Origin: Escherichia coli
GTDB taxonomy: Bacteria > Pseudomonadota > Gammaproteobacteria > Enterobacterales > Enterobacteriaceae
Direction: 5' to 3' (one strand)
Assembly (NCBI RefSeq): GCF_050320075.1
Contig: NZ_CP190018.1
DNA: 64,000 nt
The position numbers were made by a program. This document shows, one piece after another, positions 21,001-27,000 of this stretch (within the stretch, counting starts at the first letter, position 1; each line of letters starts with the position of its first letter).

Positions 21001-24000
21001 ACGCCGTCCCGCCAGCGCCGAATGGATTGGTTAAAGCCGTGGCTTTCTATGAGCAGGTTAAACGTGAAAATCCGCCAGTTGAAACGGGAGCATGGAAAGA
21101 TGCCGTTGACTGGGTGCTTAAACAAGCTTGTCAGTCTGTAAACACTGGCATCAATGAAAGAAGAACAATTGAAGAAAATGACGATTGAGCTGGAAGCTGC
21201 AAAAAAGCGCATTGCTGAACTGGAGGAGCGTCGGTCATGAGAAAAATCAGTGGAATGTTGAACCTGGAGAAGGCCAGGATGCAGTTGCATGTTTTGTTAT
21301 CAGGACCGGTTCCTGCAATCACTCCGATGGCGCATGCCGTGGCAATAAAAGTTGTGCTTGATGCTCTGGATGCGAGTGAGCGGAGGGTGGCAGAACTGGA
21401 ACAGGCCTGCGCTGCCGCTGGCATTCGTATCAAAGGGGAACAAGTGAAATGAAACTGAAGATGCAGGCAATGGACGGCCCGGTGATTATAGAAAGTAGTG
21501 ATGTGACACAGTTTTACCCTGACCATGAAAGTGGCGGGGAACTCACAGCTGTTGAGTACCTTGCTGACGGGGGAAGAATCACCGCGAGGGTGAGGCACTC
21601 TTTTTATCAGGTTGCTGCGGCACTTGCCGGGGCATGGCGTGCGGATGATGCGTCAAAAAGCGGTGGGTGAGGACTGTGCCGGAATGAGTGTCTGTTCCGA
21701 AGCTGCTGAGCCGCGACATAAATTTTTTATGTTGCGGTGAAGCAGCCGACAAACGAAGAGCGTCAGCGTATCAACAGTTAAGGAAAATATCTTCTGAAGC
21801 CGGACGCGACAGTCAGTCCGGTGGTGCTCGTGTGGTGAAGTGTTTAGCCTGCATCTTTGACAGGGTTCAGTTATAAGCATTTCGGAAACCGTTCCCCGGC
21901 GCAGTCTGCCGGGATTTAAGGAGTTTATTTATGGCGCTACCTGCAGAAAGCCTTATTGCGCATACGCTCAGAAAAATGAAGGCCAGCATGGCAGAGAAAG
22001 CCAGTCGTGAGGACGGGAGGATACGCAGTGGGCTGTTGTTTACCGGCAATGTTCACGATTCGTATCCCCGCAGGCTGTTGCTGGATACGCGCCTTTCTCC
22101 CCTGGATAAAACTGCGTGGATGATGATTCGTCTGCATGCCCTGAATAATGAGGGCGCAGTCTTTCCGACGTACGATGAACTGCAGTTACAACTGGCATCT
22201 CCCGGCTGCGGGAAGGCGTCCCGTGAAACAGTGAGCCGTGTGCTGACAATGCTGCGGCTTACGGGCTGGCTGAGTCTGTGTAAGCGGGTCAGGGATGAAA
22301 AAGGGCGGGTCCGGGGGAATATTTACGCCCTGCATGATGAGCCACTGACCTGCTGTGATGCAGAAAAGTTTGACCCACGATACCTGGATATGGTTCTGGA
22401 TACTGTGAGCAGGAGCCGGAACAAGACAATCCGGCACACAGCCAGTGAAGTGCTCAGCGATATCAAAAATGAGCCCGGTATGCGGCATTACCACAGCCAT
22501 ATCACTCTGTTTGAATCGCGTATGGGGGCTGCACAGACGCCGGTTCAGCTGGCGGCGCGTCAGCGGGTGAACCCGATGGTGAATGAAAACACAGGCAGAG
22601 AGAGTGGTTCGGATTCCGTACATACCCCTGCACCTGTCGTGCAGGTAAACGAACTCAGTGATCCATTAATCGAACTCAGTGAAAAACAGGAAATGAGCCC
22701 ACTCAGTTCGGATTCCGTACCACCTGGAAAATCAGCAACTTATCACTCAGTTCGGAAAACGAACAATTACGTACGTAATATCACACACAGTGTGATTAAA
22801 AATACGTACGTATTGCCTGAGTCGGTGAAATCGCAAATCAGCGCAGAAGACACGGACATGCTGACAAAACAACTGCAGGCATTGCCGGAAGAACTGGCAG
22901 GTAGTGTGCTGAGCAGCCTGTCACAGATGCTCAGCAAAAACACGCTCCAGAATCCGGTTGGCTGGATGCTGGCTGTGATGAAACGTGCGCGTGAGGGGCG
23001 TTTTAATACGCCGGATATGTCCGTGCATGAATCCCGGTCGCCAGCCCGTGCACCATATCAGCCAGTGTACAACCGTGATGAACGTGAACGTCGTCGCGGG
23101 AAAGTGGCGTCACCTGAAACGGTGAGCAACATTGTCGCAGAATTCCGGGCCAGCCTGAAACGTGCAAATGCTGCCCGTCTGGCGGCGCGTGTTTGATGTT
23201 AAAAATCACACGGTGTTGCCAGTGGCAACAGCGATTAAAAAATGTACGGTGTTGCCAGTGGCAACAGTGGTTAAAAAATGTGCGGTGTTGCCAGTGGCAA
23301 CAGTGGTTAAAAAATGTGCGGTGTTGCCAGTGGCAACAGTGGTTAAAAAGTGTACGGTGTTGCCAGTGGCAACAGTGGTTAAAAAATATCCGGTGTTGCC
23401 AGTGGCAACAGTGGTTAAAAAATATCCGGTGTTGCCAGTGGCAACAGTGATTAAAAATCGCGCGGTGTTGCCAGAGGCAACAGTGGTTAAAAAGTGTGCG
23501 GTGTTGCCAGTGGCAACAGTGGTTAAAAAGTGTACGGTGTTGCCAGTGGCAACAGTGGTTAAAAAATGTGCGGTGTTGCCAGTGGCAACAGTGGTTAAAA
23601 AGTGTGCGGTGTTGCCAGTGGCAACAGTGGTTAAAAAATGTGCGGTGTTGCCAGAGGCAACAGTGGTTAAAAAGTGTACGGTGTTGCCAGTGGCAACAGT
23701 GGTTAAGAAATATACGGTGTTGCCAGTGGCAACAGTGGTTAAAAAGTGTGCGGTGTTGCCAGTGGCAACAGTGGTTAAAAAGTGTACGGTGTTGCCAGTG
23801 GCAACAGTGGTTAAAAAATGTGCGGTGTTGCCAGTGGCAACAGTGGTTAAAAAGCGTGCGGTGTTGCCAGTGGCAACGGTGGTTAAAAAATGTGCGGTGT
23901 TGCCAGTGGCAACAGTGGTTAAAAAGTGTACGGTGTTGCCAGTGGCAACAGTGGTTAAGAAATATACGGTGTTGCCAGTGGCAACAGTGATTAAAAATTG

Positions 24001-27000
24001 CGCGGTGTTGCCAGAGGCAACAGTGGTTAAAAAGTGTGCGGTGTTGCCAGTGGCAATAGTGATTAAAAATTGTACGGTGTTGGCAGTGCCAACAGTGATT
24101 AAAAATTGTACTGAGTTGGCACTGCCAACATGACGTAATTTCAGTCATTCCTTTTTTTATTTTTGATTGTCAGATCTCCGTCTGCAGGCTGACTATTTCA
24201 GCCCGATATCCTTTTCTTTTGCCGGAGATATAACATGTCTGAAGAACAAATGAAGGAACCCGCATCCCGTCGTGTAGGTGCGCTTACTTCACCAGTGAAT
24301 ATCGAGTTGCACTCCCGTTATGCAATCATGCTGTGGGAAGGGAGACGAGGCACGAAAAGTAAAAGTGCTGAAGATCGCAGGGCAGCGAAAATAATGAGTA
24401 TGCCGGAAGCTATTAAGATGACTGGCGGCCTCTACAGAGATTCTCTTGCTGATAATCCCTATGCGGATGAAACGATGTGGAAAGTTGAAAATGCGATTGT
24501 TGAGGCAACCGATAAAATTAATGCTGAAGTTCGTGTACTTGAAGGGATCCTCAGAAATATTCCGTCAGTGATCACTGTCCGGGATGCTCTTTCTCGTTCT
24601 CCTGTCGATATTGGGGTTTTCAGCCGCTCTCCTCTGGGCTACCGCTGTGTATGGCTTCTTGTCGGGTATGATCAGCTTGCATTAAAAACGTTTCAGGCAG
24701 CACATCTGGGGCTTATTTCACGAAACAGGCGTGATGAGTTGTTGTCTTCTGGTGCGCATCTTATCCGCAAAATTTACGGTATTCTGCAGGGGTATCGCAC
24801 TATGGCGGTAACTCGGGATGATATTGAGAATAAAACAGAAAAGGCAGAGAAAGCTATTGCCCGTTATGGTATGCCTCATGATGATATTCTATCCGGTAAG
24901 CTCAGATCTTCATTTTCTCCGCCCCTGAACCGTAAGTCCCGTGATGCATCCCGGCAATGACAGGTGAGGAGAATTCATGCGTCTCTTTTTGTGTGAGAAA
25001 CCTTCACAGGCCGGTGATATAGCCAGAGTACTTGGGGCTGCCAGACGTGTTGATGGTGCGATTGAAGGTAAGGACTTTGTTGTGACCTGGGCCTTTGGTC
25101 ACTTGCTGGAGCAGGCGCCACCGGAGGCGTATGGTGAGCAGTTTGGCAGTCCCTGGAAAATTGACGTTTTGCCGGTCTTTCCTGAACAGTGGCAGATGGT
25201 GGTGAAGGATAATGTCGGGAAGCAGTTTAATGTGATCAGCCGCCTTCTCCGTAAGGCTGATGAAGTGGTGATTGCCACTGACGCCGATCGTGAAGGCGAA
25301 ATTATCGCAAGGGAACTGCTGGATTATTGTGGTTATACCGGCGTTGTGCGCCGTCTCTGGCTGTCCGCACTGGATGAGAGCAGTATCAGGGAGGCGCTGG
25401 GCAGGATACTGCCCGGAGAGGAGACCGAGAAGTTATATGAAGCCGGTAAGGGACGCAGCCGGGCTGACTGGCTGACGGGGATCAACCTGACGCGTCTGTA
25501 TACCCTGAAAGCCAGGGAGTGTGGTGTGTCCGGCGTCCTCTCTGTTGGCAGGGTGCAGACGCCCACGCTTGCGATGGTGGTCAGACGGGATGCAGAAATC
25601 AAAAATTTTATTCCGGTACCTTACTGGCAACTGTATCTCTGGCTGGAGAAGGACAATGTGCGTTTTCGTACCTCCTGGATTGCGGCAGCGCAGTACTGCG
25701 ATACTGAAAAACGGTGTGTGAATGTGCAGGCGGCAACAGCCGTCCTGTCACAGTGTCGTCAGGCCGGTGTTGCTGTTGTCAGGGATGTCAGCAGCAGACG
25801 GGAGAAAAAGCAGCCTCCGCTGTGTTTTTCGCTCGGAACGCTGCAGGAGGTCTGTTCGCGCAAATTTGGCCTCGGCGCGCAGGCCGTTCTTGATATAGCC
25901 CAGTCGCTGTACGAAAAGCATAAGGCGACAACATATCCGCGTACAGATTGCGGTTATCTGCCTGTGTCGATGTACAAAGAAGTGCCTGACGTACTGGCAG
26001 CGCTGGAAAAAACCGATCCGGATATTGCCCCGGAGCTGGCAAAACTCAGTCCTGATATTGTGTCGGGGATCTGGAACGACAGGAAGATCACCGCGCATCA
26101 TGCGATAATCCCCACCCGTCAGCCGTTTAATATTGGGGCGCTGAGTGATAATGAGCTTAAGGTGTACCGGTTAATTCGTCAGCATTATCTGGCTCAGTTT
26201 TTACCCGTTCAGGAGCTGGATGTCACAGAGGCCACTTTTCTTGTTGCGGGGCAGTTGTTTGGAACGCGGGGGCGAGTGGAGGTTGTCAGGGGATGGCGTG
26301 CGCTTTTTGTGTCAGATTCGGCGGGAGAGGAAGAGGATGTTGCAGACGATGAGCAGGCGATGCCCCTTCCCGTACTGGCAAAAGGCGATGAATGTCGTCC
26401 TGCTGAAGCTGAACTCAAAGAGATGCAGACCACGCCACCGCGTCATTATACGGAAGGCACGCTGATTGCGGCGATGAAAAACGCTGCGGGGATGGTGAGT
26501 GATCCGGCACTGAAAAAAGTGTTACGCGAAAATGCGGGGCTGGGCACTGAAGCGACCCGCGCAGAAATACTGGAAACGTTGTTCACCCGCAAATATATCG
26601 AGAAGCAGGGTAAGCATATCCGTGCCACGCAACTGGGGGCGGAGCTGATAGCGGGATTGCCGGAGGCGCTGACCAGTCCGGGGACAACGGCGCTGTGGGA
26701 ACAGGCTCTGGATGATATTGCACAGGGTAAACTGTCACTGTCGTCATTTATGGAAAAGCAGAAACAGTGGCTTAACCACCTGGTGGCCGGTGCAAGGCAG
26801 CAGCAACTGCAGATCACGGCACCGGTTACGCCGGCATGCCCTCTTTGTGGGAGCAGAATGCGGAAAGTGAAGATGAAAAGCGGGAAAGGGGAATTCTGGA
26901 GCTGCCAGCGTTATCCGGAGTGTAAGGGAGTGATTTCAGAGCAGAAACCGACATCCGGGAAACGGGGCGGCAGAAAAATTAAAAAGCATGGATGATGATT

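Follow-up and report, generated by a model that had tools for sequence, protein, structure and literature searches.

In a 64,000-nucleotide stretch of the Escherichia coli contig NZ_CP190018.1 (assembly GCF_050320075.1), here called the window, an integrative and conjugative element (ICE) of the SPI-7/pKLC102/ICEclc family, inserted at tRNA-Ser, carries a long tandem array of 36-bp repeats (23199–24130, no strand assigned) in the interval between its STY4528-family and PFL_4669-family genes. Sequence comparison indicates that the array probably consists of about 26 tandem parS-like, bisS-type recognition sites for the ParB-like CTPase that the ICE itself encodes (15986–17635), and the best reading of these sites appears to be that they form a multi-copy platform on which a CTP-dependent ParB clamp loads, for activation of the transfer genes, partition, or both. 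Four observations bear on this directly, namely the architecture of the sites, the orthology of the protein, the co-variation of the sites with its helix-turn-helix (HTH), and the equivalence in position to ICEclc-type bisS.

Tandem Repeats Finder places the array at 23211–24130, with a period of 36, 25.6 copies, 91% matches, 0% indels and a score of 1462; its consensus unit, CGGTGTTGCCAGTGGCAACAGTGGTTAAAAAATGTG, is identical to that of an earlier, sequence-only reading of the window, and the 25 head-to-tail copies from 23211 claimed there are borne out. Read in register, the array comprises a leading partial unit (TTAAAAATCACA, 23199–23210), 25 full units (23211–24110) and a terminal partial unit (24111–24130). 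Because the leading partial unit fills the gap to the stop codon of the STY4528 gene (23194–23196), the repeat begins 2–3 bp past that stop and the first full unit 14 bp past it, so that the distance of 4 bp given previously is approximate. Each unit is a 17-bp palindrome, TGTTGCCA-G-TGGCAACA, followed by GTGGTTAAAAA (the A-tract) and a variable 5-nt tail. Among the 25 full units, 23 of the 36 positions are invariant and most of the variation falls at positions 32–36 (the last five bases), at position 24 (G/A) and at position 13, which is the first base of the right arm and adjoins the palindrome centre. GTTGCCA-type sites number 24 (20 exact and four with a single arm mismatch), and the exact 15-mer core is present in 20 of the 25 full units; the last two sites, at 24079 and 24115, are of the GTTGGCA type (GTTGGCAGTGCCAAC and GTTGGCACTGCCAAC), with both arms altered symmetrically. 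The variant GCCAGAGGCAA occurs in three units and GTGATT in five, in addition to tail variants, and all the point variants and swapped half-sites listed in the sequence-only reading are thus present. With up to three mismatches, the 15-mer has 57 matches in the window compared to 2.6 ± 1.9 in shuffled sequences. A CRISPR was rejected, the units being contiguous and without unique spacers, and Rfam gave no match above noise in 21.5–25.5 kb. Nine units (23216–23891) contain a weak rightward sigma-70-like match, TTGCCA-16 nt-AAAAAT (9 of 12 positions), which we do not rely on because it follows from the repeat itself.

Away from the array, and 5.5 kb beyond the ICE, the exact array 15-mer also lies within a 19-bp perfect palindrome (GCGTTGCCAGTGGCAACGC, 7048–7066) in the minus-strand kdsB/kpsU gene. 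Of 5,426 E. coli genomes, 1,707 have the kpsU segment, compared to 109 with the ICE; the palindrome is probably a coincidence, although the ParB-like protein could bind it off target.

For comparison, about 80 related loci (designated by L numbers) were assembled from 72 Enterobacterales loci found in a one-genome-per-species scan with a PFL_4669 alignment, 35 plasmid records (70–690 kb) found by tblastn, among them pKLC102, pSGI4 and Pantoea, Serratia, Stutzerimonas and Ralstonia plasmids, and two sister ICEs of E. coli (L084 and L085). The half-sites at these loci are diverse (GTTGCCA, GCTGCCA, GTTGGCA, GCTGGCA, GTTGACA, GCTGTCA, GTTGCCC, GCTGCCC, GATTAGA, GATTACA, GTTGCAG, GTTGCGG and TGTGCCC), and half-site changes between ICEs are matched in both arms of the palindrome. 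The identity of half-site position 2 (C versus T) was compared with 1,200 alignment columns from four proteins encoded by the ICE, that is, 473 of the ParB-family protein, 172 of the DUF2857 protein, 341 of the STY4528 protein and 214 of the AcaB-family protein. A single column, residue 184 of the ParB-like protein, where the recognition helix begins, divides GCTG- from GTTG-type loci without exception, with a mutual information of 0.91 that equals the label entropy; the next best column reaches 0.59. Asparagine or aspartate at this residue accompanies C at position 2 in all nine such loci, other residues accompany T, and Q184 accompanies A. Residue 184 has switched independently within near-identical pairs of ParB proteins (Y in L075 and N in L026; H in L014 and N in L009; S in L011 and N in L005), and of the ParB pairs with 75–99.9% identity, 32 show a change at both position 2 and residue 184, 35 retain both, and in 9 the two disagree.

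Two further positions of the half-site co-vary with the segment that follows the HTH. Within G[CT]TG[CG]CA sites, C at position 5 is found with R211 and a residue other than arginine at 215 (8 of 8 loci), and G at position 5 with alanine, serine or threonine at 211 and R215 (8 of 8), which looks as though an arginine moves with the guanine when the latter changes strands. At position 7, C is found together with H212 in three of four loci (L008, L049 and the ICEclc-like L083). Residues 184, 211/215 and 212 thus co-vary with positions 2, 5 and 7, respectively. In a blind check on five plasmid-borne loci, the residue-184 rule fit four; the blind prediction on L061, L055 and L030 found no sites to test, L061 being a degraded symbiont copy. 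In the window protein, the HTH (V166–L197) and the following segment are encoded at 16481–16633 (plus strand), with the recognition helix D183-A184-S-S-I-S-R-M-E and then G208-L-G-R211-P212-Q-V-N215. A single-sequence search against solved ParB-DNA structures gave nothing relevant, and a profile search of the PDB matched solely the KorB N-terminus, too weakly (E 0.03) to place residues 184, 211 and 215 on a DNA complex. A hairpin or cruciform as the reason for the compensated half-site changes was rejected: the stem, 7 bp with a loop of 1 nt, would be too weak, some sites are asymmetric, and the half-site changes track protein residues.

Pairs of closely related ICEs separate the candidate binding proteins further. 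In L005 and L011, with half-sites GCTGCCA and GTTGACA, respectively, the STY4528 proteins are 96% identical and their winged helices are the same; of the four proteins, the ParB-family one has diverged most (88%), with changes in the HTH recognition helix. Between L084 and the window, the AcaB-family, topoisomerase III, STY4534, Ssb and DUF2857/BisC proteins are 100% identical, the STY4528 protein has 10 substitutions, none of them in the winged helix, and the ParB-like protein has 18, among which are R211S and N215R. The array of L084 (E. coli 181.1; 8198–8680 of that locus) consists, in order, of ten GTTGGCA units, one hybrid, two GTTGCCA units and a terminal GTTGGCA, so that it and the window array each hold, at the AcaB-proximal end, a minority of the site type of the other lineage. 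The array is also a recombination junction: to its right (24130–31000) the window is ~100% identical to L084, and to its left (15900–23200) the two are 1–5% diverged. We considered, and rejected, two separately diverged patches, at the ParB gene and at the array, as in the identity profile the divergence forms a single segment on the left that breaks off at the array.

A related system has been characterized functionally in ICEclc. Its BisD is a 550-aa ParB-like CTPase with the motifs G92NTR95 and E136NELR140, which forms foci on a single bisS site, GAGCTATCCCCnGGGGATAGCTC, and hydrolyses CTP; in chromatin immunoprecipitation it peaks at bisS and spreads over ~50 kb with the direction of transcription (Antar et al., NAR 2025, PMC12409273). 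BisD together with BisC, a DUF2857 protein, activates the transfer-competence promoters of ICEclc. The ParB-like protein of the window (549 aa; 15986–17635, plus strand) matches TIGR03764 with E 7e-115, is of nearly equal length, shares the GNTR and ENExR motifs at matching positions (G93NTR96, E135NEVR139; HTH at 166–197), and is on sequence grounds an orthologue of BisD; it is the proposed array binder and clamp. The order of genes is also that of ICEclc, with parA, a bisD-like parB, DUF2857/bisC, an STY4528-family gene (orf96323 in ICEclc), a PFL_4669-family gene and ssb, and the palindromes of both elements are odd-centred. The arrays themselves differ: ICEclc has two isolated 23-bp sites, GAGCTATCCCCnGGGGATAGCTC, whereas the window has ~26 tandem 17-bp sites of another sequence, strictly spaced at 36 bp and separated by A-tracts. 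The two are connected by an ICEclc-like plasmid locus from Ralstonia (L083), used as a proxy for ICEclc. It carries GGAGCTATCCCCAGGGGATAGAC 171 bp 5′ of the PFL_4669-family ATG and GATTATCCCCAGGGGATAGCG 10 bp past the STY4528-family stop, both of which match the experimentally validated bisS (GAGCTATCCCCnGGGGATAG), and these two bisS-type positions bracket the position of the array in the window.

Positional conservation of this kind extends across the related loci. Most of them have 2–8 sites, in a 36-bp register (or one of 57, 108 or 117 bp), in the same STY4528/PFL_4669 interval. Where cargo lies between the two genes, one site is found 14–140 bp past the STY4528 stop, and 140–200 bp 5′ of the start of the PFL_4669/AcaB-family gene one palindrome is always retained. 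Three loci from Pantoea and Enterobacter ludwigii (L013, L015 and L021) have no sites in the STY4528/PFL_4669 intergenic region; instead, four GTTGCCAnTGGCAAC sites spaced by 36 bp, with a different spacer (CTTCCGAGCCGAATTCTAC), lie within the parB-like gene at ~3240–3370. Together, the co-variation and the positional homology support what the sequence-only reading had offered as its alternative, a centromere-like binding array, here one that a ParB-family protein would bind. A comparison of copy number across related ICEs, which that reading had also put forward, gave 13 units in L084 and 25.6 in the window by direct reading, and 18 in L085 as implied by its difference in length from L084; across complete E. 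coli genomes, the lengths of the matches vary in steps of 36 bp. In drafts, copy numbers are minima because contigs end at or next to the array (L002, L007, L009, L010, L017, L022, L023, L031, L032, L053, L054 and L057), where short-read assemblies break or collapse.

These observations suggest the following mechanism. Dimers of the ParB-like protein would read each 17-bp palindrome through the HTH, and the array site would catalyse closing of the CTP-bound clamp. The clamps would then leave the array by sliding, mainly rightward along with transcription, and enter the AcaB-like, topB, ssb and type IV secretion genes; with the BisC homologue (a DUF2857 protein, the FlhC-like partner of BisD in ICEclc; 18356–18934, plus strand), they would turn on the transfer-competence promoters, and with the ParA-family ATPase (12671–13549, plus strand), they may in addition help to position excised copies or to partition them. 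With so many tandem sites, the array would be a loading platform of high capacity, and divergence of the palindrome between ICE lineages could insulate co-resident elements from each other. For the window protein, binding, clamping with CTP, the sliding direction and any downstream effects are inferred by analogy with ICEclc.

Several points weigh against this interpretation. The co-variation between site and HTH is correlative and partly confounded by shared ancestry, the failure in the blind check is Stutzerimonas L080, with N184 and GTTGCGG sites, and the Xenorhabdus TGTGCCC and GTTGCCC groups break the 211/215 rule. Half-site types are mixed within single arrays (the window, L014, L016 and L076), so that either the protein must tolerate some variation or the units are recombination relics. 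The two bisS sites of ICEclc lie within inrR and ssb and do not form a tandem array (PMC12409273), and specific binding, site-stimulated CTP hydrolysis and spreading have been shown for ICEclc BisD only. The spacer GRTTAAAAA is kept across Enterobacterales arrays irrespective of the palindrome and gives each unit a polarity, and ParB binding does not account for it. Finally, the array adjoins the STY4528 gene, the product of which has a fold resembling that of replication initiators.

A related possibility, which we consider unlikely but by no means negligible, is that the array, although bound by the ParB-like protein, is mainly a partition centromere and an incompatibility or copy-control locus for the excised form, like F sopC and P1 incA, and not a transcription switch. 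The F sopC centromere consists of 12 repeats of 43 bp, and SopB binds the 7-bp inverted repeat in each of them. The array has the same architecture, with tandem direct repeats that contain a 7-bp inverted repeat; those of sopC are read by a ParB-family HTH protein, and here too the element has a ParA of its own, from a gene at its tRNA-Ser end, as a possible partner of the ParB-like protein in positioning or partition. Unlike sopC, the array does not directly follow a parAB operon, lying 5.6 kb 3′ of parB (last position of the gene, 17635; first of the array, 23199), and the ParB of the window is a BisD-type hybrid with an activator domain. Plasmid-form relatives exist, copy number is polymorphic (13–25 units) among near-identical E. 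coli ICEs, and a partition-like role for ParA-BisD-bisS has been raised by the authors of the ICEclc study. Yet the function demonstrated for BisD in ICEclc is promoter activation with BisC, and ICEclc transfer-competent cells do not resume division.

The sequence-only reading had preferred an iteron-type origin. In a vegetative origin of this type, the protein encoded at 21931–23196 would bind the 36-bp units, melt nearby AT-rich DNA and recruit the DnaB of the ICE; we regard this as improbable. The identification of that protein stands: it is a 421-aa putative island replication protein of the STY4528 family (plus strand; NCBIfam NF040582, E 1e-116). In an AlphaFold model with a mean pLDDT of 74, it has a confident N-terminal winged helix (aa ~47–135), a helical domain (141–213), a disordered linker (220–291) and a C-terminal helical part, and the nearest folds of the winged helix are DnaD/primosomal DnaB and a RepA_N-type initiator; Pfam gave sub-threshold winged-helix hits only, and a PDB profile search gave one spurious hit to a ribosomal protein. 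Further points in favour of an origin are that the repeats directly adjoin this initiator-like gene, that DnaB, Ssb and a topoisomerase are encoded by the ICE itself, that an AT-rich stretch lies at 24130–24200, and that family members have been assembled as circular plasmids of 70–120 kb, with pKLC102 reaching 30 copies per chromosome. However, the winged-helix region (aa ~75–140) is essentially identical across all half-site classes (at least 12 palindrome classes), none of the 341 columns of the STY4528 alignment tracks the palindrome, and the winged helix is unchanged between the window and L084 although their array types differ. Moreover, the sites are split by cargo in some ICEs and lie within parB in others, and no DnaA box (TTWTNCACA) is found within 21.9–24.3 kb.

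The sequence-only reading had drawn a parallel to the origin of pKLC102. In PFGI-1, a "putative oriV" lies directly 5′ of PFL_4669 and has two halves, the first with four palindromes, CTGAGTTCGGAATCCGAACTCAGT, in AT-rich DNA and the second with four 46-bp repeats that contain an imperfect dyad; the same kind of oriV feature is cited for pKLC102, SPI-7, PAPI-1 and ICEHin1056. Read directly, the interval between the STY4528-family and PFL_4669-family genes of pKLC102 holds 15.2 units of 57 bp, with the dyad GGTGCCAcTGGCACC. The window array occupies the same interval, consists likewise of tandem direct repeats each with a dyad, shares the core TGCCA-n-TGGCA, and is accompanied by a second element, GTTCGGAnTCCGAAC palindromes within the upstream gene. 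It differs in the unit (36 bp compared to 57 in pKLC102 and 46 in PFGI-1), the number of copies (25.6 compared to 15.2 and 4) and the spacer, which is AT-rich here and GC-rich there. The array is, then, a new, unusually large repeat array of the pKLC102 type, and in position and sequence the parallel holds; the origin function of pKLC102 was still only "postulated" in 2020, and the co-variation described above does not support it. We found no report, in the literature searched, of autonomous replication of the array cloned with Rep for any family member, and replication of excised ICEclc depends on the relaxase TraI and oriT1.

An operator array for the downstream AcaB-family regulator, with cooperative binding and autoregulation, is highly improbable. 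AcaB is a ribbon-helix-helix (RHH)-like transcription activator, and RHH proteins often bind tandem repeats; the gene of the window (24235–24960, plus strand; a PFL_4669/TIGR03761 protein matching Pfam AcaB with E 9e-74) is the first 3′ of the array, begins 105 bp past it, and has counterparts in the cargo-bearing ICEs that always retain one palindrome on their 5′ side, as described above. However, none of the 214 columns tracks the palindrome (best mutual information 0.41 compared to an entropy of 0.93), the protein is invariant between the window and L084 despite the different majority site, and in L013, L015 and L021 the sites lie far from the gene. We found no connection between InrR and AcaB in the literature searched. 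That the repeat is a real gene for a protein of 12-residue repeats, as the annotation by PGAP (WP_217330805.1, 23168–24133, plus strand) and a 381-aa minus-strand open reading frame would have it, can practically be dismissed: the array leaves three of its six frames open because the unit amounts to 12 stop-free codons, most changes are non-synonymous (synonymous/non-synonymous 14/33, 17/30 and 14/32 in the three open frames), the PGAP frame differs in 95%-identical relatives and the strand is opposite in others, there is no NCBIfam match, and the number of units varies freely, all in accord with the earlier view of these frames as repeat artefacts.

A candidate for a real origin is found inside the STY4528 gene, which contains a cluster of repeats at 22600–22830 (no strand assigned) in DNA of low GC content (41–44%). 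These repeats, two copies of GTTCGGATTCCGTAC, one of GTTCGGAAAACGAAC, and two each of CGAACTCAGTGA and AATTACGTACGTA, are of the GTTCGGAnTCCG(A/T)AC type and match the first half of the PFGI-1 "oriV". With up to two mismatches, GTTCGGAnTCCGAAC has 181 sites in 65 STY4528-family genes compared to none in 695 kb of flanking sequence. The palindrome is invariant across the family, and the disordered linker of the protein is exactly the part encoded by the cluster. In RepA_N plasmids and phage lambda O, the origin lies inside the initiator gene. The STY4528 gene resembles these in having a cluster of dyads and low-GC DNA in its linker-coding part; unlike RepA_N proteins, the STY4528 protein has no membership at the sequence level. 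Because an invariant DNA-binding domain combined with an invariant in-gene site resembles these systems, we infer that 22600–22830 may be a better candidate for any vegetative origin, or for a binding site of the STY4528 protein. The corresponding sequence of ICEclc orf96323, CTTCGGAtTCCGAAG, which is the invariant in-gene palindrome of the family, was tested by the ICEclc authors and showed no BisD binding (PMC12409273).

The region is 100% identical to that of E. coli YZLc1-3 (NZ_CP123240) and is found in 109 of 5,426 complete E. coli genomes. Its genes encode, in order, ParA, an SPI-7-type DnaB, the ParB-family protein, DUF2786 and DUF2857 proteins, small proteins and the STY4528-family protein, and, after the array, the PFL_4669-family protein, topoisomerase III, an STY4534-family protein and Ssb, followed by PilL and TraD with TIGR037xx conjugation genes. 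The island-type replicative DnaB helicase (14608–15996, plus strand) is part of the same module. The array is followed by a stretch with 37–39% GC (24100–24250), within which 24131–24234 (plus strand) is the AT-rich leader or promoter region of the AcaB-family gene. Farther to the right, the window lacks, at ~29000–30100, the ISCro1 (IS66-family) insertion that splits an Rpn-family gene in YZLc1-3 (28098–31746 of locus L001). STAXI RNA motifs (Rfam RF01728) lie on the plus strand at 27365–27518, 55910–56069 and 58707–58860 (139, 89 and 138 bits), and an EFASI motif (RF02957) at 56547–56669 (plus strand). The 46-bp tandem repeats reported by Tandem Repeats Finder are the STAXI repeats; the copies at ~27316–27567 and ~58657–58908 are 99% identical across ~250 bp, and one copy lies just 5′ of the STY4534 and ssb genes.

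Taken together, these results lead to a wider proposal, which we advance tentatively, as a view almost evenly balanced between being right and being wrong. Under this proposal, the "oriV" arrays of the pKLC102/PFGI-1/SPI-7/ICEHin1056 type, annotated as such for ~20 years, would be loading sites for BisD-type clamps and not iterons; an evolvable code, in which residue 184 specifies position 2, residues 211/215 position 5, and residue 212 position 7, would insulate co-resident ICEs; and any real vegetative origin would be the in-gene GTTCGGAnTCCGAAC cluster in the linker-coding region of STY4528. Through the family concerned, which includes SPI-7, PAPI-1/pKLC102, ICEclc, ICEHin1056 and SGI-4, genes for virulence, resistance and catabolism spread across Proteobacteria. 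The in-gene cluster is a concrete candidate for the place of the family's real replication origin. If the arrays do serve as loading platforms for BisD, a long-standing annotation of origins is wrong. The number of array units, 13 to 25 in near-identical E. coli ICEs, would then be a candidate tuning knob for the strength of transfer competence, and the code linking site and HTH would predict which co-resident ICEs cross-activate and which are insulated from each other. The natural E. coli pair in which R211S/N215R goes with GTTGCCA/GTTGGCA would offer a ready-made specificity switch in the ParB family.

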